Of a DNA stretch of 55,090 nt, positions 844 to 22,850 are shown piece after piece. Positions within the stretch are counted from its first letter, which is position 1; every line of letters begins with the position of its first letter. Both the position numbers and the translations under genes were made by a program. The notes under the pieces are model-generated. The model was not told the origin of the DNA, ran no database searches, and saw only the letters and a list, made by a program, of their open reading frames with translations. This DNA comes from Bacillales bacterium (lineage in GTDB: Bacteria > Bacillota_I > Bacilli_A > RFN20 > CAG-288), in the NCBI GenBank assembly GCA_021621525.1, contig JAJVUU010000002.1, positions 1 to 55,090 on the forward strand, read 5' to 3'.

Positions 844-1557
844 TTAAAGCAAGTCTTTGTTTTTATAAACGATATGGATATCAAACGACTTGGAAGATGC
901 GTGAAAGTCATCATCCTTCAGTTCATAAGTGAATTCTTCCTTTTCCTTCATACGGATTTCCTTTTGGAAGATGAAGTCCATTCTGGAGATGTAGTGGGAA
1001 AGCAGATAATCATCATTGATAAGGGAAGACAGCATCTTTACATAGCTTGCATTGCTTAAGTGCCCGTTCAGATCGCAGGATTCAAAGTCTGCCGTCAGGA
1101 TGGCATGGTTTTGATATTCCTGGTTCCTTCTTATCGGAAGCATGGGAAACCCATCCATGTCTATACCTTCGATGATGATATCATGTTCTGTAGGATCGAT
1201 GATTCTTCTATTTTCTTGGTCTATCAAAGACCAGAGGGAAGAGGCTTTGATAAGAGGTTTTCCGTTTAGGTCCTCAATCTCAAAATATCTTGGAAAGAAA
1301 TAGTGAAGCATCCTTCCCGGAGATGTCTTCAGGATGACTTCCTCATCATATCCGGGAAGCCTGTTTATGATATAGGACTGCTTGTCGATGACCCAGAGAA
1401 GCCCTTTGTCCAATGTCTTTTCTTTTCCGTATCCCAAAAGGGTGGTGTGTCTGATACACATCTCCTGGTGCAGGAAGAGAAGACTGGAAGCCTTGAGTCT
1501 TCTATTGGCATCACAGTCTTTGCTTTGAATTCTGAGAACCTCTTTATATTCACTCAT
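844..1557 (-). CDS. acyl-ACP thioesterase (FatA/B-like, double hot-dog)
   Basis: Translation shows the typical pattern LLWVIDKQ..INRLP..E.I.. in the first hot-dog and D.DLNGH.SNASY in the second. The MSEYKE start at 1557 overlaps the upstream ACP stop as ATGA. Confidence 0.75.
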   Translation of the reverse strand: MSEYKEVLRIQSKDCDANRRLKASSLLFLHQEMCIRHTTLLGYGKEKTLDKGLLWVIDKQSYIINRLPGYDEEVILKTSPGRMLHYFFPRYFEIEDLNGKPLIKASSLWSLIDQENRRIIDPTEHDIIIEGIDMDGFPMLPIRRNQEYQNHAILTADFESCDLNGHLSNASYVKMLSSLINDDYLLSHYISRMDFIFQKEIRMKEKEEFTYELKDDDFHASSKSFDIHIVYKNKDLL

Positions 1558-1802
1558 TTTGCAAGCTGGAGGCATACTTCATCGACGATGTCCCTTAAGG
1601 TGGACATCTTGTTCCATCGATTCTCTTTGACCTTGATCTTGAATTCTGCTTCGATCTTGCAGATGATGTAGATGAAGGTCATGCTGTCTAGACCTTGGCT
1701 TTGGTTGATGGTGGTGTCTTCCTTGATATCGACATCCCTGAAGTCCGGAAGGTTGTCCTTGATGACTTTGATGATTCGTTCTTTGATTTCGTTTCTGTTC
1801 AT
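1554..1802 (-). CDS. stand-alone acyl/peptidyl carrier protein
   Basis: 82 aa with the phosphopantetheine attachment motif GLDSM followed by a helix (TFIYIICKIEAEF). An AGGAGG SD precedes it, and it starts 13 nt after the ligase stop. Confidence 0.8.
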   Translation of the reverse strand: MNRNEIKERIIKVIKDNLPDFRDVDIKEDTTINQSQGLDSMTFIYIICKIEAEFKIKVKENRWNKMSTLRDIVDEVCLQLAK

Positions 1803-1815
1803 GTCGAACCTCCTG

Positions 1816-3123
1816 TCAATGATGAAGCAGATGTCTCTTGACCTTCATGGTCAATGTCTTTTCGATAGGATTGTCTTCAAAGACAACCTGAGCTATCTTT
1901 TTTGAATTGATTTTGTCTTTATTGTAAAGAGATATCTTCTCTTCGATATCTTTCTTATCATTTTTGGTATGAATGTGTAGGATGAGAGGATAAGTTCCTT
2001 CCAAGGCAAGGTCCTCTTCCTTCAGAAATGATTTGAGTCCCTCCTCACATTCCGGAAGATAAATCTTGTTTCCGTCATCCAAGACGATGATATCCTTCTT
2101 TCTTCCCAAGAGGATGAGTTTGCCATCTTCAATCTTTCCCAAGTCTCCTGTGTGGAAGAATCCATCTTTGTCTATCAATGTTTCATTTGACTTATAGTAA
2201 CCTTCTGCCAATATCTTATCGGATGAAACGAATATTTCACCATCTTCGGCAATCCTCAATTTTTCTAAAGGACATATCGTCATCCTTCTCGGGTCATGGC
2301 CTGTCGACAGGGCAAGACCTGAGGAAGTCTCCGTGAGTCCATATCCATAGGATACCTGGATTCTTTTTCTCGCTATGGCCTTGAGAATGTCATCGCTGCA
2401 TTCCCCGGCTCCGATGAGGACGAGCCTTAGATTCTGATTGAAAAGATTGTACTTGGCATAGAAGCCTGCCATCTGCGGAACAAGAGAAATCACACTGGGG
2501 TTGAAATAGCTTAAATCATCCATCATGTGTCTCATACCTCTTGAAAGACAAATCCTGACACCGAAGGAAAGAGGCCATAACAAGGAGCAGACAAAGCCGA
2601 AGACGTGGCTTAGTGGAAGGATGGAAAGGAAGACATCGTCTTTCTTGAGAGGAAGGACGCTTCCTCCGTTGTAGCAGGATGCAAGAAGATGCTCTTCTGT
2701 CAGGATGACGGCTTTGGATGAACTTGTCGTTCCGCTGGTAAAGAAAAGGATTTTCGGATCATTGTTCTCGATGTCTTCTTTTAGGTATGGCAGGAATCTA
2801 TCTATGATTTCCTTTCTTCCGAGAAGCAGGCTTGTATCGCTTGACTGAATCTGTCTTTGAAGTGTCTTTTCTTCTTCCATAGGATTGAAGAGGATGATGT
2901 CCTTCTTTTGGTAGGCCATGGCAAAGAGGGAAAGAATCGAAGAATAGGTGTTTTCAATCATGATTCCGACTCTTTGGTTTGGAATGACGGGATATTCTTC
3001 GATGTCTTTTATAAACTGCCTGACGCTGGTATTGACAAGAGTGTCACCCTCTTCATGGCTGAAGCAGATGGAATCTTTGTCTAAGGAGGATAATAAATCA
3101 AAAAGTGAATGGAACAATGTCAT
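1816..3123 (-). CDS. AMP-dependent synthetase/ligase (acyl-AMP / acyl-carrier-protein ligase type)
   Basis: Adenylation core motifs are present: FFTSGTTSSSKAV, YGYGLTETSS, FFHTGDLGKIEDGKLILLGRKKDII and a C-terminal MKVKR lysine. At 435 aa it is short for the family. Confidence 0.8.
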   Translation of the reverse strand: MTLFHSLFDLLSSLDKDSICFSHEEGDTLVNTSVRQFIKDIEEYPVIPNQRVGIMIENTYSSILSLFAMAYQKKDIILFNPMEEEKTLQRQIQSSDTSLLLGRKEIIDRFLPYLKEDIENNDPKILFFTSGTTSSSKAVILTEEHLLASCYNGGSVLPLKKDDVFLSILPLSHVFGFVCSLLWPLSFGVRICLSRGMRHMMDDLSYFNPSVISLVPQMAGFYAKYNLFNQNLRLVLIGAGECSDDILKAIARKRIQVSYGYGLTETSSGLALSTGHDPRRMTICPLEKLRIAEDGEIFVSSDKILAEGYYKSNETLIDKDGFFHTGDLGKIEDGKLILLGRKKDIIVLDDGNKIYLPECEEGLKSFLKEEDLALEGTYPLILHIHTKNDKKDIEEKISLYNKDKINSKKIAQVVFEDNPIEKTLTMKVKRHLLHH

Positions 3124-3137
3124 TTCTATACCTTCCG

Positions 3138-3198
3138 AATTATATTGTACAACAACTTAAATGAAAGGGATTACAATTATATTATTTTGCGTTAAAAT
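3138..3198. promoter_or_regulatory. divergent promoter region with an imperfect inverted repeat (AATTATATTGTA ... TACAATTATATT)
   Basis: Candidate + promoter TTACAA(3171)-N16-TAAAAT(3193). The right repeat arm overlaps the -35. On the minus strand the left arm reads TACAAT about 20 nt upstream of the ligase ATG. Confidence 0.3.
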
Positions 3199-3239
3199 AT
3201 TTGCAGTCCATTATTTTTTAAAAGGAGGCAATTCAGAAT

Positions 3240-4700
3240 ATGGATAAGAATACACGTATTGCGATCGTCGGTGGAGGTCCAGCCGGTCTTTCCATGGCTA
3301 TGTACCTGGAAATGAAAGGGTACAAGAACTATGTCATCTATGAAAAGACGGACCACGTTGGTGGAAAGTGCCACTCTCCGGTCTATAACGGAAAACGTTA
3401 TGAAATGGGAGCCATCATGGGTGTGCAGTATTACTACGCCATCCATGATGTCGAAAAGTTTGCCGGAGTCGAGCATGACGGACCCAAGCTCAATCGTGCC
3501 TATAAGTATCCTGACGGAAGAATCGACTATCGATGGGACACGGCCGATGCCCTGAAGAATCCTTTCGGTTTCTTCCTGAAGCATCCCTCTGCCGCATTGC
3601 ATCTGAAGAAGCTTCAGAAGCAGATCAAGAAGTTCGGTGAAATCCTTGAGACGAAGTACAAGGGCTATGACGTCACCGGACATAAAGGTGTTGCTCAGGG
3701 TAAGTATGACGGATTTGCCGTGACGGAAGGAAGAGAGCCTGTCTCCGGCGAGAACCCGAATCTGAAGGATCTTGCCATGCCTTTCAGCAAATTCTGCGAA
3801 ATGAATGGTGTTCCGCTTGTCCAGGAAGTCTGGATTCAGCCTTTTACCAGCTTCGGCTATGGCTACTTTGATGAGATTCCAGCCGCATATGTCCTGAAAT
3901 ATCTTGATTTCAAGACCATGATGGACTTTGTCGCCGTCAAGCTTTGGACCTGGAAAGATGGAACACAGTCCATCTTCGAGCGCCTCAATGACAAACTCAT
4001 GCATCCTGCTCTTCTCAACAGCAACATCGAAAAAGTCGTCAGAGGAGACAAGGTCACCTTGACTGTCAATGGCAAGGAAGAGGTCTTTGACAAGCTCATC
4101 ATCACGGCACCGCTTCAGGTTGCTACGGAAAAGAATCCGTTGGACAACCCTGTTGCCAAGTCCTTGGATACCTGGCTTGATGTCACCGACAGGGAAAGAG
4201 CCCTCTTCTCCAAGATCGACTATGAAAGATATGATACGCAGGCTGTCATGATTGAACCTGACAAATATCCGGATGTCTCTTATTATATCGTTGACAACAT
4301 GAAGAAGGAAAGACTTGGCCATCTCATGGTCTATTATAGAAGATGGGAAGGAGACAAGGAACAGCCTATCACCACCTATGCCTTACGTCATCATAAGACA
4401 TTCAACGGTGGCAAGGAACTTGGCTATGAAGATACCAAGAAGACAGTACTCGATGATATGAGAAAGATTGGTTGCACACCTAGAAAGAAGGATGGCAAGG
4501 ATGAGGTCATCTATGAATTCCAGACCTACTACTTCCCACATGTCTATTCCGAAGACTATGCCGATGGATGGTATGACAAGGTCGAAGCCATGCAGGGTGA
4601 GAACAACACCTTCTATGCCGGTGAAATCATGTCCTTCGGTGACATGGACGAGACCTGCGAATATTCGCACGATCTTGTCGAACATTTCTTTGCTGACTGA
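3240..4700 (+). CDS. FAD-dependent enzyme of the polyenoic fatty-acid (linoleate) isomerase PAI family
   Basis: N-terminal Rossmann motif RIAIVGGGPAGL. The blocks TDHVGGKCHSP, RYEMGAIMGV, PAAYVLKYLDF, LWTW.DGTQ, YFPHV..EDY..GWY.KVE.MQG and FYAGEIMSFG match my recollection of C. acnes PAI. A strong AAGGAGG SD is present. Confidence 0.7.
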   Translation: MDKNTRIAIVGGGPAGLSMAMYLEMKGYKNYVIYEKTDHVGGKCHSPVYNGKRYEMGAIMGVQYYYAIHDVEKFAGVEHDGPKLNRAYKYPDGRIDYRWDTADALKNPFGFFLKHPSAALHLKKLQKQIKKFGEILETKYKGYDVTGHKGVAQGKYDGFAVTEGREPVSGENPNLKDLAMPFSKFCEMNGVPLVQEVWIQPFTSFGYGYFDEIPAAYVLKYLDFKTMMDFVAVKLWTWKDGTQSIFERLNDKLMHPALLNSNIEKVVRGDKVTLTVNGKEEVFDKLIITAPLQVATEKNPLDNPVAKSLDTWLDVTDRERALFSKIDYERYDTQAVMIEPDKYPDVSYYIVDNMKKERLGHLMVYYRRWEGDKEQPITTYALRHHKTFNGGKELGYEDTKKTVLDDMRKIGCTPRKKDGKDEVIYEFQTYYFPHVYSEDYADGWYDKVEAMQGENNTFYAGEIMSFGDMDETCEYSHDLVEHFFAD

Positions 4701-4721
4701 TTTCTGAAATTTGCTGTCTTG

Positions 4722-4756
4722 CACCAAAGAGGCAGAGCTTCTCTGCTTCTTTGGTG
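4722..4756 (+). terminator. 16-bp intergenic hairpin, a partial terminator or mRNA-processing/stability element
   Basis: CACCAAAGAGGCAGAG-CTT-CTCTGCTTCTTTGGTG with one G.U pair, followed by an interrupted U-tract TTTCATGTATTTT. Confidence 0.45.
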
Positions 4757-4780
4757 TTTCATGTATTTTGGGGGTACTTT

Positions 4781-6340
4781 ATGGATAGTCCTTTTTTCAA
4801 GAAGAGATATCAGGTGGTCATCATCGGCGGTGCCTTGTCAGGCATGGCATGTGCTCTTCAGCTTATAAGCAAGGGAATCAAGGACATCTTGATTCTGGAA
4901 CAGCATAATCTTCCCGGAGGAATCGCAACCTCCTTCGTCAGAAGCGGAACGGAGATAGAAGCGACCCTTCATGAGATGATGTCCATCGGAAATGAAAATC
5001 AATTGAAGATCGGTGAGTTCTTCAAGGAATGTGGCATCGATATCGATTGGCTCAGGGTTCCTGATGCCTATCGATATGTCGATAAGGATGTAAACTGCCT
5101 TGTCCATGCCGGAACGCACGGGGATTTTGAGACTCCGGCCAAGGAGATGGCTTCTTCTGTCGGTGATGATGATGGTTCCGTTTATCAAAAAATACTTTCA
5201 TTCCTGAACATGTGCAAGAAGGTCTACGATGCCATGAACTATGTAAGCATGCATGAAATCAGCAAGCCGATGATGCTTCTGAAGTTCCCGGAGCTTGTCA
5301 AGACATGCGGGTATAGTGCCAAGGAAGTCATGGATAGCTATGGATTGCCTAAGAAGGTCCAGAATATTCTCTCGGCTTATTGGATTTATGTCGGAAATGT
5401 CGTAGATGACCTTCCTTTTTCTATCTTTGCCTTCCTTCTTGCCGATTATCTTGGATATGGTTCCGTGGTTCCTAAGAAGTTCAGCCATGAGATGTCTCTT
5501 AAGATGGCTGAGAAATGTGTCTCCCAAGGAGTGCAGATGGAATACGGACAAAGAGTATCTCAGATTCTGGTCAAAGACAAAAAAGCCTATGGTGTCATAA
5601 CAGCCGATGGAAGTGAGATACTCTCAGATTATGTCGTCTGCTCCGCTTATCCGAATACGGCCTATACGAAGATGATTTCACCTAAGAGCGAGGTGCCCAA
5701 GGAAGCGATAAGGCTCACCAATTTCAGGAAACTTGGCCTGACATGTTTCTCCGTCGTCCTTCTTCTGGATAAGAATCCGGAAGAACTCAACATTCATGAT
5801 TATTCCACTTTCTATGCACCCGAGGGGTTGGATTTTGATAGAATATGGAAAGACTACGCCACTGAGGGACCCTATAAGTACATCACCTCCATATGTACCA
5901 ACATCGCCAATCCCGGCTGTACGAGGAAGGGGACCTGCATTTATTCCATCACGGCCCTTCCTAGGCCGGATGGCTGGATGAAGGTGACGGAGGAAAACTA
6001 TGAGGAGATGAAGAGACTCAATGCGAAGTTCTTCATCGATATGGAGTCTGAGCGTCTGGGTGTCAATCTCTATGACCATATCCTGGATATCGTCATCGAA
6101 TCGCCGGTGAGCATTGCCCATTACACCGGAAGTTTCCGTGGCTCCGTCTATGGTTATCAGCACAGGATGGATGACAGCATCGTCGCCCGTCTTGGCATGG
6201 ATGACAAGGAACATTATATCGAACATCTGGCTTTTGCCGGTGCACATCAGATTTCAGGGGATGGCATGGGCCCGGCCATCACCAATGGCCGTAAGGCAGC
6301 CAAGGAGATTCTTTCTTCTCTTGAAAAGGAGGGCAGGTAA
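4781..6340 (+). CDS. CrtI/phytoene-desaturase-family FAD oxidoreductase, paralog 1
   Basis: Start chosen at MDSPFFKKRYQVVIIGGALSGMACAL (dinucleotide fold) with LPGG downstream. The C-terminal FAGAHQISGDGMGPAI is the typical CrtI-family FAD-closing motif. The longer TTG-start ORF would begin inside the hairpin. Confidence 0.8.
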   Translation: MDSPFFKKRYQVVIIGGALSGMACALQLISKGIKDILILEQHNLPGGIATSFVRSGTEIEATLHEMMSIGNENQLKIGEFFKECGIDIDWLRVPDAYRYVDKDVNCLVHAGTHGDFETPAKEMASSVGDDDGSVYQKILSFLNMCKKVYDAMNYVSMHEISKPMMLLKFPELVKTCGYSAKEVMDSYGLPKKVQNILSAYWIYVGNVVDDLPFSIFAFLLADYLGYGSVVPKKFSHEMSLKMAEKCVSQGVQMEYGQRVSQILVKDKKAYGVITADGSEILSDYVVCSAYPNTAYTKMISPKSEVPKEAIRLTNFRKLGLTCFSVVLLLDKNPEELNIHDYSTFYAPEGLDFDRIWKDYATEGPYKYITSICTNIANPGCTRKGTCIYSITALPRPDGWMKVTEENYEEMKRLNAKFFIDMESERLGVNLYDHILDIVIESPVSIAHYTGSFRGSVYGYQHRMDDSIVARLGMDDKEHYIEHLAFAGAHQISGDGMGPAITNGRKAAKEILSSLEKEGR

Positions 6341-6341
6341 C

Positions 6342-7523
6342 ATGAAGATCAAATCATTCTTTCAGGATATTCTAGGCTCGGCAAGAGTCACCAAGAGAAG
6401 AAGCGAAGCCATCAAAAGGGCTTCTGACATTCCGGATGGCACAGATCCTATCGGTGATGTGGCAAGGCTGCTTCATCCTGGAAAGTTCAATCTGAAGATT
6501 GTCTCGATCAGGGATGCAAGCAAGAGTGCCAAGACGTTCACGTTTGAATCGGAGACTGGCCATATTCCTTATTTCAAGGCCGGTCAGTTCCTCACCCTTG
6601 AATTCCATATCGGAAAGAGCCTGGTCACCAGGCCGTACTCCATCTCTTCAGCACCCTATCAGACCAGAGGAGAACATCCTATCGTCGAAATCACGGTAAG
6701 GAAGTCCAAGGGAGATGGATTCATCTCGGACTATCTCTATCATGAAGCCAAAATCGGTGACGTCTTCCTTTCTGAAGTCGGACTCGGCCAATTCTTCTAT
6801 GAACCGTTAAGGGATGCAGGACATGTGTTGGCTCTTGCCGGTGGAAGTGGTATCACGCCTTTTGTCTCCATGGCAAAGGAAATCAAAAACGGAAAGCTCG
6901 ATGTGGACCTAACCATCCTCTATGGTTCCGTAAGTGAAGATGATATCATCCTGAAGGATGAACTAGACGATTGCCTTTGTGACAAAGTCCATGTCATCCA
7001 TGTCCTTTCTGGTGATAATCCTGATTGGAAAGGTGAAAAAGGCTTGCTTGATGCTGAACTTATCAAGAAGTATTCTTCCGGGGATACGAGTTATTTCATC
7101 TGTGGGCCTCAGGCCATGTACACGTTCCTTCAGGGTGAACTGAAGAAACTGGAAGTCCCTGAAAGAAGAATCCGTTTTGAAGTCTTCGGTCAACCTAAGG
7201 ACGTCACCAAGATGGAAGGATATCCTAAGGAAAAGAAGGATAAGGTCTATGAAATCACGGTCTGCCGTGGTATCAAGGAAGACGTCATATCGGCCAGGGC
7301 TGATGAACCTATCGCCGTCAGCTTGGAACGTGCCGGAATGAAGATCCATACTGCTTGCCGCAGCGGAAGCTGTGGATTCTGTCGTATCAAGGTCCTGGAA
7401 GGCAAGTATTTTGTCTGCAAGGTAGGTGACGGAAGGAGGGCGGCCGACAAGGATTTTGACTATGTCCATGCCTGCAGCACCTATCCTATCTCCGATATGA
7501 AGATTCGCATCAACATCGACTGA
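6342..7523 (+). CDS. FNR-like flavin reductase fused to a C-terminal plant-type 2Fe-2S ferredoxin domain (Hcr/PDR-like)
   Basis: RPYSISS (FAD), LAGGSGITP (NAD(P)H) and CRSGSCGFC...C (C-x4-C-x2-C...C) are present. The ATG at 6342 lies 1 nt after the upstream stop. The 5' part of ORF 6114.. overlaps the CrtI gene and was discarded. Confidence 0.8.
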   Translation: MKIKSFFQDILGSARVTKRRSEAIKRASDIPDGTDPIGDVARLLHPGKFNLKIVSIRDASKSAKTFTFESETGHIPYFKAGQFLTLEFHIGKSLVTRPYSISSAPYQTRGEHPIVEITVRKSKGDGFISDYLYHEAKIGDVFLSEVGLGQFFYEPLRDAGHVLALAGGSGITPFVSMAKEIKNGKLDVDLTILYGSVSEDDIILKDELDDCLCDKVHVIHVLSGDNPDWKGEKGLLDAELIKKYSSGDTSYFICGPQAMYTFLQGELKKLEVPERRIRFEVFGQPKDVTKMEGYPKEKKDKVYEITVCRGIKEDVISARADEPIAVSLERAGMKIHTACRSGSCGFCRIKVLEGKYFVCKVGDGRRAADKDFDYVHACSTYPISDMKIRINID

Positions 7524-7527
7524 AAAC

Positions 7528-9153
7528 ATGGGTTCGCCGTATTACAAAGACAGCTATGGCTGCATCATCATCGGCTCAGCTCTCGCTGGCATGTCGGCAG
7601 CTTTGAAGCTGTCCAAGCGAGGTTTCAAGGACATATTGATTCTGGAGAGGCAGAACACGCCTGGAGGTGTTACGACTTCCTTTGTCCGTTCCGGCGTGGA
7701 ACTGGAAGCATCCCTTCATGAAATCTCTTCTGTATCCAGCAAGAGATATCCTCTTTTTGTACGTAAATTTCTCAATGAGTTCGATGTCAACGTCTCCTTT
7801 GTAAGGTCGGATGAAGCCTTCCATTATGTCGAACCTGGATTTTCCTGCACGGTGCACTGTGGCAAGGCAGGAAGATTTGAAATCCCCTGCCATGACATCT
7901 CTCTGGCAGTCGGAGATGAATCCGGTGAAATCTATGACAAGCTGATGCTCTTCTTCCAGGATTGCAAGAACGTCTTCGATTCCATCGGCTCTTTTTCCGA
8001 TGGTGACTTCCTTGGCCTGGACCTGATCCAGTCCCATATCGACCTCATGCGTTCCTTGTCCTATTCGACGATGGAGGTCATCGATGTCTATGGCTTTCCT
8101 GACGTCGTCAAAAGGATCCTTCTTGCCTATTGGTGCTATCTTGGAAACGAACCTGGTGATCTTCCCTATGTCCTATATAGCTGTCTCATGACGGATTATC
8201 TAGGATATGGCGTCTATACCTGCAAGGAAACAAGCCATGAGTTATCCATCAAGCTACTTGAAGCCTGCAGGAAGAAATCGATTCAGGTGGAGTTCAACCA
8301 GGAAGTGAAGAACATCCTGGTGAAGGACGGACATGTCATCGGTGTCAGACTCATGGACGGAAGCGAAATCTCTTCCAACTATGTCGTCAGCGGTCCCTAT
8401 CCCAATACTGTCTATAACTACATGATAGAACCACCAAGCGAGGCTCCTCAGAAGGCTTTCCAGATGCTCAGTGCCAAGAGTCTCAGCATGAGTGTCTTTT
8501 CGACTATCATGATCCTGGATGAACCTCCCGAGAAGCTGAACATGGATCATTACATGACCTTTGTTGCTCCTTCTGGATTGGATTTCAAGAAGATCATGGA
8601 TTCGTATCATTCCGACCATGGCTATGAGTACTTCATGACCGTATGCTTCAATCAGGTTCTTGACTATTGCCCGAAAGGAAAGACCATCTATTCCATCACC
8701 GCCCTTCCCTATCCTGACAGCTTCAAGGATGTCACGGAAGAAAACTATGATGAAAAGAAGCACATCATCGCAAGGGAGATGATTCAAGAGGAATCCAGAC
8801 GTCTTGGTGTGAACCTGCTTGATCATATTCTTGATATCGAGTTCATCACCCCGGTCTCCATCGCCCATTACTGCAAATCCTTCCAGGGCTGCATATATGG
8901 ATATCTTGCCAGCCTTGACGACAATGTCGCGGCAAGGATCATGAAGCATGAAGAGGAACAGCTGATCAAAGGCCTTGCCTTTGCCGGCGCCCACCAGATG
9001 TCCGGGGATGGTATGGGTACCCAGTTCATCAACGGCAACCAGGCTGCTGAGGATATCTACAAGCAGTTCCAGAGCGATGTGCCAGGTCCGCTTCAGAACA
9101 TCATCATTCCTAAGAAGCCTAAGAAGAAAAGAAGAAAAAAGCTTCAAAAATAA
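7528..9153 (+). CDS. CrtI/phytoene-desaturase-family FAD oxidoreductase, paralog 2, with a polybasic C-terminal tail
   Basis: CIIIGSALAGMSAAL plus TPGG. It is colinear with paralog 1 (SFVRSG.E.EA.LHE, YPNT.Y, TIYSITALP, FAGAHQMSGDGMG). The tail reads PKKPKKKRRKKLQK. Confidence 0.8.
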   Translation: MGSPYYKDSYGCIIIGSALAGMSAALKLSKRGFKDILILERQNTPGGVTTSFVRSGVELEASLHEISSVSSKRYPLFVRKFLNEFDVNVSFVRSDEAFHYVEPGFSCTVHCGKAGRFEIPCHDISLAVGDESGEIYDKLMLFFQDCKNVFDSIGSFSDGDFLGLDLIQSHIDLMRSLSYSTMEVIDVYGFPDVVKRILLAYWCYLGNEPGDLPYVLYSCLMTDYLGYGVYTCKETSHELSIKLLEACRKKSIQVEFNQEVKNILVKDGHVIGVRLMDGSEISSNYVVSGPYPNTVYNYMIEPPSEAPQKAFQMLSAKSLSMSVFSTIMILDEPPEKLNMDHYMTFVAPSGLDFKKIMDSYHSDHGYEYFMTVCFNQVLDYCPKGKTIYSITALPYPDSFKDVTEENYDEKKHIIAREMIQEESRRLGVNLLDHILDIEFITPVSIAHYCKSFQGCIYGYLASLDDNVAARIMKHEEEQLIKGLAFAGAHQMSGDGMGTQFINGNQAAEDIYKQFQSDVPGPLQNIIIPKKPKKKRRKKLQK

Positions 9154-9228: not shown

Positions 9229-9327
9229 ATCCTAAAATATGCATAAATGAGGAAAAGCAATATTCTAAAATATGCATAAATGAATAGAATGAATATCCTA
9301 AAATATGCATAAATGAAAATTATGGTA
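9229..9327. repeat. 3 x 33-bp tandem direct repeat (22-bp conserved core + 11-bp variable part)
   Basis: Core AT(C/T)CTAAAATATGCATAAATGA at 9229, 9262 and 9295. Each core carries TGCATAAAT (extended -10-like) and an ATGCAT palindrome. The array ends at a TGGTATAAT extended -10 (9323-9331), 25 nt before the ATPase ATG. Confidence 0.9.
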
Positions 9328-9355: not shown

Positions 9356-10678
9356 ATGATGCTGAAACGGAAAATGTATGAACGATTGCTGTCGTGGAAA
9401 AAACAGCCTAAGAAGGAGTGTGTCTTATTGAAAGGAGCAAGGCAGGTAGGAAAGACTTTTTTGGTGAGGGAATTCGGAAGAAAAGAATATGAAAGCTTCA
9501 TCGAAATCAATTTTCTGGAGAAGCCGGAACTGAAGACCGCCTTTGCTGGCGAAATCAGCGCTCAGGAAATCTATAAGAGGCTTACGGCAAATCTCCCTTC
9601 CATCAAACTGATTCCCGGGAAGACGCTGTTGTTTTTAGATGAAATCCAGGCTTGCTCAAAAGCACGTATGGCATTGAAATTCCTTTCCGAAGACGGGACT
9701 CTGGATGTGATTGCCTCTGGTTCTTTGTTAGGCCTCTCCTATGGAAGAGACGATGACGATAGAGTGGAAAGAGTCGAATCTGTGCCTGTAGGATATGAGA
9801 AATCGTTGATGATGTATCCCCTGGATTTTGAAGAATATCTATGGGCAAACGGATTTCCTGATGAAACCATCTCTTATCTGAAGACTTATTTTAGCGAAAG
9901 AAAACCACTGCCTTTTGATATCCTTACAAAGGAAGAAAACCTTCTGAAGGAGTATCTTGTCGTCGGTGGTATGCCCGAGGTGGTTTCTGATTTCATGAAA
10001 AATCATGACTTCAATCGAGTCCAGGACATCCAAGAGAAAATTCTCTCTTCCTATGAGGATGACATCGCCTTCCATGCCAAGGGCGTTGAAAAGACAAAGG
10101 TGAGGAAGTGTTTTGATAGTATCCCCAGACAGCTTGCTAAAGAGAATCGGAAGTTCAAGTATTCGGAAGTCGAACATAAGTCGACGGCAAGGAAGTACCA
10201 GGATAGCGTTGACTGGCTTAGGGATGCCAGTCTTGCTTTGGTCTGCGAAAATGTCAGTCAACCCTGTCTTCCTTTGAATGTTTATGAGAAGGAAAATGAA
10301 TTCAAAGTCTATTTTTCCGATACCGGTCTTCTTCTTGCCATGTATGGCTTTGAAACAAAAAAGGCTCTTCTCAATGATACTCTTAAAGGCTTTGCCAAAG
10401 GTGGTATTTATGAGAACTTTGTAGCACAGTCTCTTTTGGCAAAAGGATATGGTCTTCATTACTATAAGCCTGATGATGATTCTAAATTGGAATTTCTGAT
10501 AGAAAAGGATGGCGAAGTAAGACCGATTGAAGTCAAAGCCGGAAACAAGGCGACTGTATCATTGAATCGATTCCTGGAAAAAGAAAAACCACAGCTTGTC
10601 TATAAGTTGGCATATGCGAATTTAGGATATCACGAAAAAAAGCTCACCATACCCCATTTCATGGTCATGTTTCTATAG
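9356..10678 (+). CDS. AAA+ ATPase with C-terminal DUF4143 (PD-(D/E)xK-like) domain, COG1373 family, copy 1
   Basis: Walker A GARQVGKT and Walker B LLFLDEIQ. The C-terminal EFLIE...PIEVK is a nuclease-like motif. An AGGAG SD is present. Confidence 0.8.
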   Translation: MMLKRKMYERLLSWKKQPKKECVLLKGARQVGKTFLVREFGRKEYESFIEINFLEKPELKTAFAGEISAQEIYKRLTANLPSIKLIPGKTLLFLDEIQACSKARMALKFLSEDGTLDVIASGSLLGLSYGRDDDDRVERVESVPVGYEKSLMMYPLDFEEYLWANGFPDETISYLKTYFSERKPLPFDILTKEENLLKEYLVVGGMPEVVSDFMKNHDFNRVQDIQEKILSSYEDDIAFHAKGVEKTKVRKCFDSIPRQLAKENRKFKYSEVEHKSTARKYQDSVDWLRDASLALVCENVSQPCLPLNVYEKENEFKVYFSDTGLLLAMYGFETKKALLNDTLKGFAKGGIYENFVAQSLLAKGYGLHYYKPDDDSKLEFLIEKDGEVRPIEVKAGNKATVSLNRFLEKEKPQLVYKLAYANLGYHEKKLTIPHFMVMFL

Positions 10679-10692
10679 TGAGCTTTCGATGG

Positions 10693-11265
10693 TTATTTCT
10701 GGGGTGGTTCTTTCTTTCTGCAGGGAATCCTTCCGATATCGGCTTTGCTTAAACCTTTGATCAGGAAGAGACAGAGAATCGATACGACGACACAGGTCAC
10801 GATGCTTGAAAGGAAGCGGAAGACGGTCTCCAGGATGGTAAAGGATACAGGATAGTTCATCAAGTAGGCATCTAGGAAGATAAGCCCCGTATTGATGGAA
10901 GTCGTCAAGAGGAAGGTAAGAAGCATTAAGAGAGAATAGGCTGGAAGATGATTCTCGAGGTAAGTACCTTTCCTTCTTGCGATGACCTGGAAAAGAGAGA
11001 CCATGCCTGCCCGGAATAAGGAAGGAATGATCCATAGGAAGGTCGTTGGGGTAAAACCATACTGCAATAGCTGAGACAGCATTTCACCGACAAAGGCGAC
11101 AAGCAGGGCATCAGAGGGACTATAGAGAAGACCAGACAGGATGATGGCAAAGCTGGCAAAGGTGATGCGGATGTTTCCCATCTTCACGGAATATAAGGAA
11201 AGAACGAAATATAAGGCGGCAAGCAAAGAATCAAGACATAGTCGAAAGACGGCTTTTTTTCTCAT
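10693..11265 (-). CDS. folT: ECF transporter S component, folate family (FolT)
   Basis: 190-aa polytopic membrane protein with about 6 hydrophobic helices. It sits directly downstream of a THF riboswitch. Confidence 0.7.
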   Translation of the reverse strand: MRKKAVFRLCLDSLLAALYFVLSLYSVKMGNIRITFASFAIILSGLLYSPSDALLVAFVGEMLSQLLQYGFTPTTFLWIIPSLFRAGMVSLFQVIARRKGTYLENHLPAYSLLMLLTFLLTTSINTGLIFLDAYLMNYPVSFTILETVFRFLSSIVTCVVVSILCLFLIKGLSKADIGRIPCRKKEPPQK

Positions 11266-13963: not shown

Positions 13964-14055
13964 AAAAAGTCTCGGAATGAAAATACAAAAAGTTTCGGAA
14001 TGAAAATACAAAAAGTTTCGGAATGAAATTGGCAAAAGCTTTGGATTGCTTTATG
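13964..14055. repeat. 23-bp tandem direct repeat, 3 good copies plus degenerate flanking copies
   Basis: AAAAAGT(C/T)TCGGAATGAAAATAC at 13964 and 13987, a third copy at 14010, and a degenerate fourth copy at 14033. A related TTGGATTGAAATT lies at 13941. The array ends 30 nt before the ATPase ATG. Confidence 0.85.
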
Positions 14056-14084
14056 TTTTAGATAAGTGTCCTGAGGTGATTTAT

Positions 14085-15359
14085 ATGGAAATGAATGGCT
14101 ATAAGAAAAGAACCGTGGATAGGAAACTACTGAAGTATTTGGAGTCTTTTGGTGCAGTATTGATTGAAGGGCCGAAATGGTGCGGTAAGACTTGGACCGG
14201 ACGGAATTCGGCTGAGAGCGTATTCATGGTTGCCGATCCAAAAGGCAACTTCAACAATCGAAGAATGGCCTTGATGGATCCGGATATGATTCTAAGCGGA
14301 AATACACCGAGGCTGATTGATGAATGGCAAGAAGTACCGACCATATGGGATGCTGTAAGAGGAGAAGTCGATGATAGAGCCAAGACAGGTCAGTTCATCT
14401 TGACCGGATCTGCGACAATCAACAAAGAAAAGTACATCCATACTGGGACAGGACGGATTGCTCATCTCAGGATGAGACCGATGTCTTTGTTTGAAAGCGG
14501 TCAGTCTGATGGAAGCGTCTCCCTGGAAGATATTTGCCTAGGGAGGGCAAAGAATCAGATGACCGGTGAAGTGAAATTGGAAAAGATCATCGAATATATC
14601 TTGTCTGGAGGATGGCCGGCTAATACCAGACTATCTTTTGACCAGGCCAGACTGATTCCTGAAGAATATGTCTATTCTGTTCTTCATGAAGATATCTTCA
14701 AGGTGGACAACATCAAAAGGGACGGGCACAAGGTGGAGCTGCTGCTTCGTTCTCTTTCCAGAAACGAAGCTATGACGGTTTCAAATGCTGCTTTGAAGAG
14801 AGACATCACAAATACAGATATGAGTGATGTCAATATTGATACAATCACGGATTATTTGAATCTCTTCAGGCATCTGTTCCTGATAGAGGACATTCCTCCC
14901 TTTTCACCCGATTTCCGTTCATCGCTGAGAATCAAGCAAAATGAAAAAAGGCATTTTACGGATCCATCTCTTCCGTGTGCTTTCTTATCGATGACAAAGA
15001 CAAAACTGCTGGAAGATCTGAACTTCCTCGGTTTTCTTTTCGAATCCTTGGTCGAACGTGATCTGCTGACTTATGTGGATGACTTCCATGGGAAACTATT
15101 CCACTATCAGGATTATAAAGGCAATGAGATGGATGCTGTGATCGAACTTCAGGATGGGAATTGGTGTGGAGTTGAAATCAGGCTCGGTGCCAATCAGATA
15201 GAAGAGGCTTCCAAGAACCTGCTGAAGGTCAATGATGACATAAAAAAAGCAGGAGGAAAGCCGGCAGGTTCACTTATGGTGATATGTGGTCTAAGCAATG
15301 CAGCTTATCTCAGACAAGATGGTGTCTATGTCGTTCCTATCACATCCTTAAGGAGCTAG
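14085..15359 (+). CDS. AAA+ ATPase with C-terminal DUF4143 (PD-(D/E)xK-like) domain, COG1373 family, copy 2
   Basis: Walker A GPKWCGKT and Walker B LIDEWQ. The C-terminal EMDAVIE...GVEIR motif is nuclease-like. The ATG at 14085 has a GAGG SD 8 nt upstream. The longer TTG-start ORF begins inside the repeat array. Confidence 0.8.
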   Translation: MEMNGYKKRTVDRKLLKYLESFGAVLIEGPKWCGKTWTGRNSAESVFMVADPKGNFNNRRMALMDPDMILSGNTPRLIDEWQEVPTIWDAVRGEVDDRAKTGQFILTGSATINKEKYIHTGTGRIAHLRMRPMSLFESGQSDGSVSLEDICLGRAKNQMTGEVKLEKIIEYILSGGWPANTRLSFDQARLIPEEYVYSVLHEDIFKVDNIKRDGHKVELLLRSLSRNEAMTVSNAALKRDITNTDMSDVNIDTITDYLNLFRHLFLIEDIPPFSPDFRSSLRIKQNEKRHFTDPSLPCAFLSMTKTKLLEDLNFLGFLFESLVERDLLTYVDDFHGKLFHYQDYKGNEMDAVIELQDGNWCGVEIRLGANQIEEASKNLLKVNDDIKKAGGKPAGSLMVICGLSNAAYLRQDGVYVVPITSLRS

Positions 15360-19920: not shown

Positions 19921-21486
19921 TTAGATAGTCTGTGGTTTTTTGACGGGAAGCTTTCCCAAAAGAGGTCTTTCTTCCTTGTTGACGAATTTCCTTCCGTCGA
20001 TACGGCATAGCCTCTGACAGGCATGCTTGCCGGAGATGAGGGCGATGGGAAGACCACCCGGTGGCATGATCCACTGGCCTGCGATGACAAAGGAATGAAG
20101 TCCCTTGATGAGACCAGGCCTCATCAGTCCCTTGGTGAACTTGGTCGTGATGAAGGACATATAGGAACCTTTATAGGCGTTGGTATAGCGCTCATAGGTA
20201 AGCGGCGTCGTGACATCGAGAAGCTGGATTTCGCCATCCTTGAGATGAAGCTTTTCCTTCATGAGCTTTAAGAAGGTATTGCCAAGAGCCATCTTCTGCC
20301 TGCGGTATTCATCCTTAGGCAAGGAAGAAAGGTAGTCATAGACTTCCTCGTTGGCCGGAATAAGGATGGTGAGGAGGGTATCGTCATGGAAGGAAGCCAA
20401 GGATTTGTCGAAGGCAAAGTTGCGGATACCGAAATGGTCGGTTCTCTTTCCGAAGATATCGATCGGATCGATCTTGTAATCCATCATCTTCGGGAAATTG
20501 TTCATGTTGCGCTTGGTCTTGAAGGCAATCATGATGGAAGTGTTGATCGGATTGGCCTTGGCATCACGGAATTGGGATTCAAAGCTTTCATCCTTATATT
20601 TGCCTTCCAGAAGGACGTTCAAGGTATGATAGGCATCGCAGGCAGCGATGACATAGTCAGCCTGGATTTCCTTTCCGTTCTCCAAGATGATTCCCTGGGC
20701 ATTGTCCCTCTTGATGAGAATCTTCTTCACGGGAGCGTTGAGGAAGAGTTTTCCACCCATCCTGGCGAACTTTCTGGCAACCTTCTTCATCAGTTCAAGG
20801 GAACCGCCTTCGACCATGCCGGCATTGTCCTTGCTGACAGCGGCACAGACGTAGAAGAAGGAATGGATGTTGTAGTTCGGCTCCATGAAACGGGTGATGA
20901 TTTCCCCGAGTTCCTTGTTGTGGAAGGTGCTGACATATTCTTCGACGGAGACATGCTTGTAGTGGAGGAAGGGGTAGGCTGCAGGAAGCATCCTGAGTCC
21001 GAAGAGCGTGAATTCGAATGGATTCATGTAATCCAAAGGCTTTTTGCAGGGAACGGAAATGGAATGGTATGCCTTGACGGTGGAGATGAAATTCCTGATG
21101 TTCCTTCGGTCTTCAGGGAAGAAGAAAAGCATCTCCTGCTCAAGCTTCTTCAAATCGCTGTAGAAGGTGAAGATCCTACCATCGTCGAGCATGTATTTGG
21201 TGATATATTCCGTCTTGAAGGTCTTGGCACCATCGTCAAAAAGGCCGATGTGCTGCCAGAGAGGATAGAGCTCGCTTGTAGGATTGGTTCCGACGATCCA
21301 GTGGGCACATCCGTCGATGTACTGCCCCTGTCTCATCCAACCGGTGCATTCTCCTCCGGGAATGGAGTGCTTCTCATAGATTTCGACATCAAAGCCATTG
21401 TCCAGGCAGTATATGCCTGCGGTCAGGCCGGACACACCGGCACCGACGATTATGACTTTCTTCTTGGTTAAATTTGAAATGTTCAT
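19921..21486 (-). CDS. CrtI/phytoene-desaturase-family FAD oxidoreductase, paralog 3
   Basis: MNISNLTKKKVIIVGAGVSGLTAG..IPGGEC and a C-terminal VIAGQWIMPPGGLP. The start at 21486 was chosen because the Rossmann motif follows immediately. No SD is present. TGCGATAAT lies 11 nt upstream. Confidence 0.8.
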   Translation of the reverse strand: MNISNLTKKKVIIVGAGVSGLTAGIYCLDNGFDVEIYEKHSIPGGECTGWMRQGQYIDGCAHWIVGTNPTSELYPLWQHIGLFDDGAKTFKTEYITKYMLDDGRIFTFYSDLKKLEQEMLFFFPEDRRNIRNFISTVKAYHSISVPCKKPLDYMNPFEFTLFGLRMLPAAYPFLHYKHVSVEEYVSTFHNKELGEIITRFMEPNYNIHSFFYVCAAVSKDNAGMVEGGSLELMKKVARKFARMGGKLFLNAPVKKILIKRDNAQGIILENGKEIQADYVIAACDAYHTLNVLLEGKYKDESFESQFRDAKANPINTSIMIAFKTKRNMNNFPKMMDYKIDPIDIFGKRTDHFGIRNFAFDKSLASFHDDTLLTILIPANEEVYDYLSSLPKDEYRRQKMALGNTFLKLMKEKLHLKDGEIQLLDVTTPLTYERYTNAYKGSYMSFITTKFTKGLMRPGLIKGLHSFVIAGQWIMPPGGLPIALISGKHACQRLCRIDGRKFVNKEERPLLGKLPVKKPQTI

Positions 21487-21644
21487 ATGGTGTATATTAT
21501 CGCAAAACCGCTCTTCAATTGATATAGAAAACGTAGGAACGGCATAAATCATGCTTTAAAAGCGCTTAAATTGTCTTGTACAAATGATGGATTGCGTAAA
21601 ATAAATGCACGATTGGTAAAGAGCATGACAAAAGATGACAGGGT

Positions 21645-21672
21645 AAACAAAAACAGGGTCGAAACCCTGTTT
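21645..21672 (-). terminator. intrinsic terminator after bioY
   Basis: Minus strand ACAGGGT-TTCG-ACCCTGT followed by TTTTTGTTT. Confidence 0.65.
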
Positions 21673-22237
21673 AAGCGGCATGTCTTGTGGGAATGGACAA
21701 GGCCTTGTCAAGCGGCTTCCTGAGTTTGAAGGTCACGAGCGTTCCACAGACAATCTTGCATGCGTCTCCAGGAAGGAAGGGAACGACGCAGGCCATCAAG
21801 GCAGCAGCGAAGGCTTTCGGATTTCCATTGACGTTGCAATAGATGAGGTACCAGGCAAGGCCGAAGGCGTAGATGAAGAATGTCGCAAGAATCATGCCGA
21901 GAGGATAAATCCAGAATCTATCTTTCTTCCATGTGATGAGAAGGGATTCGGCGACGATTCCGACGATGTATCCATAGATGAATCCTGCAGTCGGTCCGGC
22001 AAGCGGAGCAAGTCCGGCCTGGAAGCTGGAGAAGACAGGAACACCCATCATACCTATCAATATATATAGGACGACACAGATGGGAGCTCTCTTGACATCA
22101 AGAAGAGCACCGATGATATAGACAGCCAAGGTTGCCAGTGTTATCGGGACAGGTCCTATAGGAATGGAAAGCGGAGCAAGCACACATAACAAGGCAGTGA
22201 ACAGGGCGATGAAGGCAATATTTCTTGTGGTATTCAT
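21671..22237 (-). CDS. bioY: biotin transporter BioY
   Basis: 188 aa. PLSIPIGPVPITLATLAVYIIGALL and GMMGVPVFS..AG...L.GPT.GFIYGY are characteristic BioY blocks. Confidence 0.85.
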   Translation of the reverse strand: MNTTRNIAFIALFTALLCVLAPLSIPIGPVPITLATLAVYIIGALLDVKRAPICVVLYILIGMMGVPVFSSFQAGLAPLAGPTAGFIYGYIVGIVAESLLITWKKDRFWIYPLGMILATFFIYAFGLAWYLIYCNVNGNPKAFAAALMACVVPFLPGDACKIVCGTLVTFKLRKPLDKALSIPTRHAA

Positions 22238-22394: not shown

Positions 22395-22850
22395 TCAGTC
22401 TTTTTTTGCATCCGGATGGGAAGAAAGATAGGTTTTTTTGATTTCTTCCGGCATATTGTCAATATCGGTGAGCTTCTCCATGTCGATTTTCCCGTCTTGC
22501 AGGGCAGTTTGATAGTACCATTTCTTGAACTGGATCAGATCGAGGTTCTTCTCCAATTCCTGTATTTGGTTTCTGATCCTTTCCTCGGCCTTGACAAAGA
22601 GGTCATATCTTTCATGGATGGTGGAGTCCCCCTGTTTGCAAAGCTCCATGAAATGGACGATCTCGTTGAGTTGAAGACCTGACTTCTTCAGACATTCGAC
22701 AAGGCGTATGGCATCGATGTTTTCCTTGTTGTAATAACGGATGCCACTCTTCCTTTCGGCATTGATGAGGATTCCTTCCTTCTCGTAATAACGTAAGGTT
22801 GAGATTGGCAAATTGGTAAGCTGGCTGATTTCTCCGATTGTGTATTTCAT
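22395..22850 (-). CDS. MerR-family transcriptional regulator
   Basis: N-terminal HTH YTIGEISQLTNLPISTLRYYEKEGIL followed by a coiled-coil dimerisation helix. Confidence 0.85.
   Translation of the reverse strand: MKYTIGEISQLTNLPISTLRYYEKEGILINAERKSGIRYYNKENIDAIRLVECLKKSGLQLNEIVHFMELCKQGDSTIHERYDLFVKAEERIRNQIQELEKNLDLIQFKKWYYQTALQDGKIDMEKLTDIDNMPEEIKKTYLSSHPDAKKD

Follow-up and report, generated by a model that had tools for sequence, protein, structure and literature searches.

A locus of gut and rumen bacteria that joins a polyunsaturated fatty-acid isomerase module to a CrtI-like flavoenzyme/reductase module: candidate genes for fatty-acid hydrogenation

Which genes and which organisms run the reductive and trans-10 steps of polyunsaturated fatty acid (PUFA) biohydrogenation? 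Microbial PUFA hydrogenation sets the trans and conjugated fatty acids of milk and meat, causes diet-induced milk-fat depression and yields bioactive conjugated linoleic acid (CLA) isomers in the human gut; to our knowledge, the only known trans-10 isomerase gene is from a skin actinobacterium. The question becomes testable with a locus that we analysed in a 55,090-nucleotide stretch of contig JAJVUU010000002.1 (assembly GCA_021621525.1, Bacillales bacterium; hereafter the window). In this locus, genes for an acyl-AMP ligase, an acyl carrier protein (ACP) and a thioesterase diverge from genes for a homolog of the FAD-dependent polyenoic fatty-acid isomerase PAI of C. acnes, for two CrtI-like flavoenzymes and for a flavin/iron-sulfur reductase. 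An earlier note on this DNA had described the seven genes as a self-contained single pathway. We replace this description by two separable modules, since each occurs alone: module A (PAI and the ligase-ACP-thioesterase trio) is joined here to module B (CrtI-like flavoenzyme and reductase). The locus is common to many gut and rumen species and is a strong candidate for genes of polyunsaturated-fat hydrogenation.

Relatives of the isomerase were collected by a scan of 185,579 species genomes, one genome per species, which reported 350 stretches, and the best 80 were examined for synteny by tblastn with the window proteins. The trio was found directly beside PAI in 68 of the 70 loci with at least 2.6 kb upstream, and in one of the two exceptions the ACP alone escaped detection. 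Sufficient flank on both sides was available for 40 loci, of which 27 carried a CrtI-like gene and the reductase, and 13 carried the trio without a CrtI-like gene. Denoting the thioesterase, ligase, CrtI-like and reductase genes TE, LIG, CRT and RED, and divergence <>, the most frequent arrangements were TE-ACP-LIG <> PAI-CRT-RED (34 of 80 loci) and TE-ACP-LIG <> PAI only (31 of 80, some on contigs ending soon after PAI). Four loci (L004-006, L015) were arranged as RED-CRT-TE-ACP-LIG <> PAI, where LIG-ACP-TE-CRT-RED form a single-strand operon, and in one (L033) PAI-CRT-RED-LIG-ACP-TE lie on one strand, followed by a gene resembling isrA, described below. According to the record titles these loci belong to RF39-like Bacilli, Erysipelotrichaceae, Oscillospiraceae, Mogibacterium and Coriobacteriales, and single-protein look-ups added one Sphaerochaetaceae and one Eubacteriales contig. 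Recurrence in dozens of species puts the arrangement well outside what chance would give, and the keeping of the same partners through rearrangement is strong evidence for functional coupling. The expectation that the seven genes would be syntenic was thus borne out as to the partners, which are conserved across genomes in four shuffled orders, but not as to their being indivisible, and the carrier-protein trio is linked to the PAI gene, not to the CrtI genes.

The separability of module B was evident also from contigs that encode orthologs of CrtI-like 2 with no PAI or trio nearby, arranged as CRT1-RED-CRT2 (L084-L086) or as RED-CRT2 alone (L087, L088). L086, L087 and L093 share the genes downstream of the locus in the window, encoding a riboflavin transporter S-component of the energy-coupling factor (ECF) type, a zinc-ribbon protein and PAP2, and L086 additionally shares with it the ZnuABC genes and a third CrtI-like gene. 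This shared site implies that the CrtI/reductase unit is resident there in this lineage, with PAI and the trio present or absent upstream. When all open reading frames (ORFs) of the 80 loci were clustered, no further general neighbour emerged besides the six core families and the IsrA-like/Hyp set; in GC-rich loci, spurious antisense ORFs resulted from naive calling. A GGDEF/EAL protein encoded after the reductase in two loci was judged incidental. The organism labels of one group of records appear unreliable: 'H07...cleanbin' records (L009, L011, L012, L014, L016, L023 and others) are titled Escherichia coli, Bacteroides uniformis, Parasutterella or Roseburia hominis, while their contigs match RF39-like Bacilli in gene content and PAI-cluster identities, and the values of L023 ('E. 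coli') are identical to those of L013 ('uncultured Mollicutes').

The 486-aa protein aligned over its length to C. acnes PAI, as had been proposed (PDB sequence search; 2b9w, residues 2-484, E 3.6e-117). Its residues 2-149 pair with residues 4-134 of the 2b9w chain and its residues 176-484 with 139-423; the match takes in domains 2 and 3, which are specific to PAI, and the next-best PDB match (2e-06) covered the Rossmann motif only. Identity to C. acnes PAI is 45% overall and ~52% outside four insertions, which total ~60 aa. We aligned 59 sequences, comprising 57 cluster-linked homologs, one fungal homolog and C. acnes PAI. G13, G15 and G18 of the FAD motif VGGGPAG (GxGxxG; PF13450, E 5.4e-11) were invariant in 59/59, as were, in C. 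acnes numbering, F168 and F193, and R88 was kept in 58/59; the window protein has R86 at the R88 position and both Phe. In C. acnes PAI, R88 reportedly anchors the carboxylate and F168 and F193 reportedly line the channel, in work by Liavonchanka et al. from 2006. Because the carboxylate-anchoring Arg is so conserved, we propose that isomerisation precedes ACP loading; the kept Arg suggests that it takes place on the free acid. The reverse order of the earlier note, loading and then isomerisation, is disfavoured by the same residue and is weighed below as a rival. Cluster-type PAI proteins have in addition a Lys-rich helix, LHLKKLQKQIKKFG, near the Arg, which is missing from C. acnes PAI. The databases give the PAI-like and CrtI-like homologs no more than generic names ('NAD(P)/FAD-dependent oxidoreductase', 'prolycopene isomerase', 'protoporphyrinogen oxidase').

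The fungal homolog is encoded on a 94.9-kb scaffold of the anaerobic gut fungus Anaeromyces robustus (MCFG01000271.1; L081 8001-9431). It is one uninterrupted ORF of 476 aa, with 66% identity to the window protein, it retains the same insertions as the cluster-type proteins, and there are no ACP trio or CrtI genes nearby. The gene was probably acquired from rumen bacteria by horizontal transfer, and it may explain CLA formation by anaerobic gut fungi.

The domain and structure searches proposed earlier (PF01643, PF00550, PF00501, 2b9w, PF01593 and PF00175 with PF00111) all matched the expected ORFs, while scanning of the NCBIfam models yielded no equivalog for any of the seven proteins. In the trio, the thioesterase matched PF01643 (E 1.2e-19) and PF20791, both above cut-off, and its closest PDB structures are the acyl-ACP thioesterases 4gak, 2own and 2ess. 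D-x-N-x-H is the catalytic motif of FatA/FatB-type acyl-ACP thioesterases, and the D-x-N-x-H-x-x-N motif of the window protein is in register with that of 4gak (DLNGHLSN vs DQNQHVNN). The ACP scored 27.9 bits with PF00550 (cut-off 20.8), and its phosphopantetheine attachment Ser lies within GLDSM; as it fell under every AcpP equivalog cut-off (42.1 vs 70 bits), it is not of the housekeeping type. The 435-aa ligase, a candidate fatty acid-[ACP] ligase, matched PF00501 (E 9.9e-32, 110.6 bits) and, best in the PDB, 3ipl. Its translation includes the ANL core motifs TSGTTSSSK, YGYGLTE, HTGDLG and GRKKD, and it is weakly similar to models of MenE and of long-chain fatty-acid ligases, none near cut-off (NF004971, 61.9 vs 847 bits).

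The two CrtI-like proteins are paralogs with 45% identity (BLASTP, E 2e-168). Their assignment to the CrtI family held for the fold but not for membership of the curated carotenoid families, as the CrtI, CrtD and CrtISO models scored 55-75 bits against cut-offs of 238-640. CrtI-like 1 obtained 63.9 vs 238.1 bits with TIGR02734 (crtI_fam) and 64.0 vs 586.9 with TIGR02730 (carot_isom), and CrtI-like 2 obtained 62.9 vs 238.1 with TIGR02734 and 75.1 vs 580 with a second model. An AlphaFold2 model of CrtI-like 1 (mean predicted local distance difference test score 85.8) had as its top fold match 4rep, of the CrtI family (E 5.4e-27, template-modelling scores 0.78/0.83, 18% identity), well ahead of amine oxidases. 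No phytoene/diapophytoene/squalene synthase (PF00494) was found in the scanned window ORFs or in the gene tables of the ten relatives L084-L093, and on this missing gene together with the sub-cut-off scores we rejected a carotenoid pathway. We likewise rejected polyketide or de novo lipid synthesis, since the locus encodes neither a ketosynthase nor any other chain-building enzyme. CrtI-like 1 was followed by the reductase in all contexts seen, and CrtI-like 2 always adjoined it. CrtI-like 2 is lineage-restricted, forming a 13-cluster ortholog clade outside which identity falls to the CrtI-like 1 level. Its C-terminus (9096-9153) is polybasic, PKKPKKKRRKKLQK; its orthologs P0241-P0247 have long Lys-rich tails, in P0248-P0253 no more than one to three Lys are left at the terminus, and no such tail occurs in the CrtI-like 1 clade. 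The tail suggests action at an anionic surface, membrane or ACP, or on a second substrate. A third, distant CrtI-family flavoprotein is encoded elsewhere in the window (Table 1), 23% identical to CrtI-like 1. Beside it are genes for a MerR/NmlR-type regulator and for BioY, a biotin transporter component; L086 has both the flavoprotein gene and BioY. The host gives no signs of carotenoid synthesis.

The reductase had been described as FNR-like with a 2Fe-2S domain, and indeed PF00970 (FAD_binding_6), PF00175 (NAD_binding_1) and, C-terminally, PF00111 (Fer2) are all present. Its translation includes the motifs RPYSIS and GGSGITP and four Cys ligands in a C-x4-C-x2-C...C pattern (CRSGSCGFC...C). 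The nearest models, those of PaaE, GbcB and an Hcr-type NADH oxidoreductase, were all under cut-off (best 134.5 vs 420.8 bits). In the four contigs whose called-gene tables show it (L089, L090, L091, L092), the CrtI and reductase genes overlap.

A further partner was found in relatives. In 13 related loci from four lineages, eleven among the 80 (L032, L033, L062, L068-L070, L072-L075, L077) plus L089 and L091, an Fe-S flavoprotein of ~900-1010 aa resembling IsrA is encoded immediately next to the PAI cluster, in most cases together with the nickel chaperones HypA and HypB. Besides 4Fe-4S domains and a Pyr_redox_2 domain it has an N-terminal region in which Pfam recognises no domain, and its gene follows the reductase gene or lies on either side of the thioesterase gene. 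In L089 the order is HypA-HypB-HypB-TE-ACP-LIG <> PAI-CRT-RED-(938 aa), and L091 has two copies of the gene. In Acetobacterium wieringae, IsrA is a putative isoprene reductase implicated by proteogenomics; 73% of its 'clade 9' homologs are HypA-linked and some adjoin oleate hydratase, and its authors proposed that homologs hydrogenate unfunctionalised conjugated C=C bonds (PMC10134865). By architecture and context, the ~900-aa neighbours are putative IsrA-like conjugated-diene reductases, and where present the IsrA-like protein may be the true diene reductase. The association points independently to hydrogenation of conjugated dienes as the theme of the neighbourhood. The gene is missing from the window, where a search gave only ~40-aa Rossmann-motif matches.

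All seven ORFs of the earlier note were found in the ORF list and translations at the coordinates it gave (Table 1), and two start codons were revised relative to that first description. For the thioesterase we placed the start at 1557 and not at the in-frame upstream ATG 1575, because the ATG at 1557 overlaps the ACP stop (ATGA). CrtI-like 1 most likely starts at ATG 4781, behind a GGGGG ribosome-binding site, rather than at TTG 4751. The reductase ATG at 6342 falls within a longer mechanical ORF (6114-7523). The close spacing claimed for both strands was confirmed, with 13 nt from the ligase stop to the ACP start and the ATGA overlap on the minus strand, and with 1 nt between CrtI-like 1 and reductase and 4 nt between reductase and CrtI-like 2 on the plus strand. 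An 80-nt gap, absent from the earlier note, separates the PAI-like and CrtI-like 1 genes, and within it, at the junction of modules A and B, lies a hairpin (dG -32.9 kcal/mol, z -5.96; equally stable in 0/200 shuffles) that is a possible terminator or attenuator. The promoters of both divergent units presumably lie within the spacer between them, in which we found no convincing operator palindrome, only a single AT-rich 9-nt inverted repeat. A consensus promoter scan gave 14 sites vs 14.9 in shuffles, i.e. no excess, and terminator-like sites numbered 11 vs 7.0 in shuffles (sd 3.1), with no clear enrichment. The G+C content per gene is 0.41-0.48, the same as in the flanking genes, and thus gives no sign of a recent foreign insertion of the PAI module.

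Table 1. Features of the locus and of its surroundings, in positions of the window
Feature	Position	Strand	Description
Acyl-ACP thioesterase	844..1557	-	237 aa, two hotdog domains; PF01643 + PF20791
Stand-alone acyl carrier protein	1554..1802	-	82 aa; PF00550; GLDSM
ANL-family AMP-binding ligase	1816..3123	-	435 aa, compact; PF00501
Divergent intergenic region	3124..3239		116 bp
PAI-type FAD-dependent polyunsaturated fatty-acid double-bond isomerase homolog	3240..4700	+	486 aa; PF01593
Hairpin, then U-rich tract	4721..4757	+	17 bp; between PAI and CrtI-like 1 genes
CrtI-superfamily flavoenzyme 1	4781..6340	+	519 aa; PF01593; candidate C=C saturase
NAD(P)H-dependent flavin reductase, C-terminal plant-type 2Fe-2S domain	6342..7523	+	393 aa; PF00970 + PF00175 + PF00111
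CrtI-superfamily flavoenzyme 2	7528..9153	+	541 aa; PF01593; polybasic C-terminal tail
Tandem direct repeats	9229-9327		3 x 33 nt
AAA_14/DUF4143 ATPase	9356-10678
ECF riboflavin transporter S-component	10693-11265	-
Tandem direct repeats	13964-14048		3 x 23 nt
AAA_14/DUF4143 ATPase	14046-15359
Third CrtI-family flavoprotein	19921-21552	-	543 aa; crtI_fam 87.9 bits; 4rep E 2.6e-15
BioY biotin transporter component; MerR/NmlR-type regulator	21671-22237; 22395-22850	-; -
ORF	23097-26171	+	1024 aa; no Pfam or NCBIfam match

The best related contig (98% identity) comes from a metagenome-assembled genome (MAG) of Candidatus Enterosoma, a genus placed under Bacilli in NCBI, and neighbouring matches are titled 'uncultured Mollicutes' or 'Bacillales UBA', names of the RF39 type. 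We take Enterosoma to belong to RF39. RF39 genomes have entirely lost fatty-acid synthesis and need exogenous fatty acids (PMC6784871).

From the gene content, homologies, conserved residues and synteny observed, we infer the catalytic steps, their order, their substrates and the direction of electron flow. Tentatively, and with slightly less than even confidence, we read the locus as two modules acting on scavenged unsaturated fatty acids, in which conjugation by PAI is followed by saturation by the CrtI-like/reductase pair. The PAI-like FAD isomerase would turn a free methylene-interrupted cis,cis acid of the linoleate type into a conjugated diene, by homology to C. acnes PAI presumably t10,c12-CLA. 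The ligase would adenylate the fatty acid and load it onto the dedicated ACP, and the thioesterase would be able to unload it. Module B would be a two-component reductase in which electrons pass from NAD(P)H to the reductase flavin, the 2Fe-2S cluster and the FAD of the CrtI-like protein. The CrtI-like partners would saturate one C=C of the activated conjugated system by RetSat/CrtISO-type hydride chemistry, giving a trans-monoene, and CrtI-like 2 would probably act on a second substrate (e.g. a conjugated triene from linolenate) or at the membrane. The cell would either release the product or, as acyl-ACP, build it into phospholipids. We propose that the host gains by detoxifying PUFAs, re-oxidising NADH and adjusting the fluidity of its membrane; where the host is an RF39 bacterium, acyl-ACP may also supply phospholipid synthesis, and membrane tailoring may count as much as detoxification or NADH disposal.

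The reductive direction is favoured because strict anaerobes have no O2 or quinone to take electrons from a CrtI-type desaturase and NADH-to-alkene flow is exergonic, and because every one of the CrtI-like genes has a reductase gene tightly coupled to it. Lipid-related neighbours were also counted in support of the two-module reading. A patatin-type lipase gene (L090, 11712-12635) lies 10 nt after a stand-alone CRT-RED pair and a PlsC-type acyltransferase gene (L092, 5453-6280) lies near another. DegV (FakB-like) fatty-acid-binding proteins are encoded ~5 kb from the trio and a 4'-phosphopantetheinyl transferase (PPTase) ~2.5 kb from the thioesterase (L012/L013/L017/L023; L019-L022), the PPTase near the trio in 4 loci.

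Several points weigh against this reading. Every activity in the clade is assigned by homology and context. Module A is common without B, and module B is found without PAI nearby, so that the two need not act on the same molecule. The weakest point is the role of the trio, which is PAI-linked, yet PAI-type enzymes act alone on free acids (in C. acnes and as the stand-alone fungal homolog), and a load-and-release ACP cycle costs ATP without an evident reason. In loci that carry IsrA-like genes, these are at least equally good candidates for the diene reductase. Finally, CrtISO-type enzymes use reduced flavin without net reduction.

The difficulty with the trio would vanish if the fatty acid were first loaded onto its private ACP, the PAI-like and CrtI-like enzymes acted on acyl-ACP and the thioesterase freed the product, as load-and-release genes are chemically sensible only with a reaction on the carrier. 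Such a tethered order is consistent with the trio being bound most tightly to PAI (68/70 loci, and 31/80 with the four-gene form only, some of their contigs ending after PAI), with the Lys-rich helix near the Arg, which could dock an acidic ACP, and with the PPTase next to the trio in four loci. It stays a serious rival, but we consider it unlikely: the carboxylate-anchoring Arg is kept in 58/59, the fungal homolog with the same insertions stands alone with no ACP genes, ATP would be spent on an already exergonic reaction, and C. acnes PAI takes free acids. Distinctly unlikely, in our judgement, is a redox-neutral, CrtISO-type role of the CrtI-like proteins, in which the reductase would merely keep their FAD reduced while they interconvert geometric or positional isomers (e.g. 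cis to trans, or a shifted conjugated system) with no net hydrogenation. The carotenoid isomerase model TIGR02730 ties as the best NCBIfam match of CrtI-like 1 (64 bits), and CrtISO-type enzymes are established to require reduced FAD; a dedicated reductase coupled to every CrtI-like gene seen, however, suggests stoichiometric electron flow, and the IsrA-like association points to hydrogenation.

That module B occurs alone at the same chromosomal site in L086, L087 and L093, and that the window has a third, distant CrtI-family gene, would fit a substrate other than a fatty acid (dietary carotenoids, polyprenols or quinone side chains), with module B tied only loosely to the PAI module and the trio activating exogenous fatty acids for phospholipids, as RF39 bacteria, being without type II fatty-acid synthesis, must activate those they scavenge. 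This we hold to be improbable, because operons in several lineages interleave CRT-RED with the ligase, ACP and thioesterase genes (L004-006, L015, L033), module B directly follows PAI in at least 34 loci, and the patatin lipase and PlsC-type genes lie beside or near stand-alone pairs. As most characterised CrtI-family members are desaturases, including UfaD, which desaturates a fatty acyl chain, one might also expect extension of the conjugation to conjugated triene or tetraene acids; yet the hosts, as fermentative anaerobes, have neither O2 nor a quinone evident as acceptor, backward operation of an FNR-like NAD(P)H reductase would be strongly endergonic, and the association with IsrA-type reductases argues for the opposite direction, which makes this highly improbable.

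Under the two-module reading one may go further and propose that the CrtI-like/Fe-S-reductase pair is a conjugated-linoleate reductase which, with PAI, the ACP system and, in other lineages, the Ni-dependent IsrA-like reductase, forms a complete and horizontally mobile genetic basis of trans-10 biohydrogenation in gut and rumen. We regard this as possible though on the unlikely side; if true, it would place RF39, Erysipelotrichaceae and Oscillospiraceae behind t10,c12-CLA and t10-18:1, and hence behind milk-fat depression.

The process and the isomerase family are known, while for the genetic system around them our literature search found no description, and the enzymology that we propose is new. 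C. acnes PAI shares with the window protein the FAD fold, domains 2 and 3 and R88/F168/F193; the window protein differs in its four insertions, in its cluster with ligase-ACP-thioesterase, CrtI and reductase genes and in occurring in anaerobic gut and rumen Bacillota and relatives rather than in a skin actinobacterium. Members of the CrtI superfamily (CrtI/CrtD, 4dgk and 4rep; CrtISO; RetSat; UfaD) have in common with the two CrtI-like proteins the fold, PF01593 and a long lipophilic substrate, but here identity is at most 18%, scores are sub-cut-off, no carotenoid synthase gene is nearby and there is a dedicated NAD(P)H/2Fe-2S reductase; we know of no characterised CrtI-family enzyme with such a partner. 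The reductase itself has the three-domain order and cofactor motifs of the class I FNR-like reductases (PaaE; phthalate dioxygenase reductase, PDR; Hcr; AscD/E3), and unlike PaaE, PDR and Hcr it is paired, in strict anaerobes, with a CrtI-like flavoenzyme and not with an oxygenase or hybrid-cluster protein. Systems that activate exogenous fatty acids (the acyl-ACP synthetase AasS; the second ACP AcpB of Enterococcus and Streptococcus) likewise combine an ANL ligase with an extra ACP for scavenged acids, in a host without synthesis; the window ligase is much shorter (435 aa) and is accompanied by a FatA/B-type thioesterase and an isomerase. The IsrA operon resembles the 13 related loci in architecture and in its HypA/HypB neighbours, and both would deal with non-activated conjugated dienes; it differs in its C5 hydrocarbon substrate and has no counterpart in the window.

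The linoleate biohydrogenation of rumen and gut (trans-10 and trans-11 routes; the Butyrivibrio 'CLA reductase') has the same predicted chemistry and habitat, and the present locus offers candidate genes. A previous study used BLAST, at >=40% identity, to count PAI homologs in rumen MAGs, with gene context not considered (PMC10019597). The earlier note held that genes for the reductive steps are not assigned, in agreement with three reviews from 2025-2026 that name no gene. A 2026 review of CLA-forming enzymes mentions CLA reductase once, as a Butyrivibrio activity with no gene (PMC13365329), a 2025 review gives it solely as a Butyrivibrio activity, and a 2026 review of rumen biohydrogenation does not use the word 'reductase'. 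The note's further statement, that its author knew of no described system with this gene combination, agreed with our full-text literature search, outside which most subscription journals lie and which found none. The CLA-HY/CLA-DH/CLA-DC/CLA-ER pathway of Lactiplantibacillus plantarum is likewise multi-gene and saturates dietary PUFA via conjugated intermediates, but it employs a hydratase, a short-chain dehydrogenase/reductase, an isomerase and an enone reductase, with hydroxy and oxo intermediates and no carrier protein (PMC13365329). For cloning, the locus offers as candidates the isomerase, the two CrtI-like enzymes together with their own reductase, and the set that handles the ACP. It also points to new enzymology in two respects: in strict anaerobes, a CrtI-fold enzyme would draw its electrons from a dedicated NAD(P)H/2Fe-2S reductase, and fatty-acid conjugation would be linked with the IsrA family of putative Ni-dependent alkene reductases. 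For the fatty-acid-auxotrophic RF39 bacteria it suggests how scavenged lipids are tailored.

The window is chromosomal, as it includes a ribosomal-protein operon region with SecY and RpoA. The ECF riboflavin S-component is encoded 1.5 kb from the cluster, and in L086, L087, L088 and L093 its gene is convergent to the last CrtI-like/reductase gene; it may serve as flavin supply for the four flavoenzymes or reflect plain synteny. Two divergent AAA_14/DUF4143 ATPase genes, whose products are ~21% identical, each have three tandem direct repeats at or just before their start, and they look like insertions because both are missing from the otherwise syntenic L086. The window also encodes a 1024-aa ORF with no match to Pfam or NCBIfam (Table 1), and in L084, L086 and L093 the CrtI/reductase module is likewise flanked by large proteins (1400-1500 aa) without annotation.

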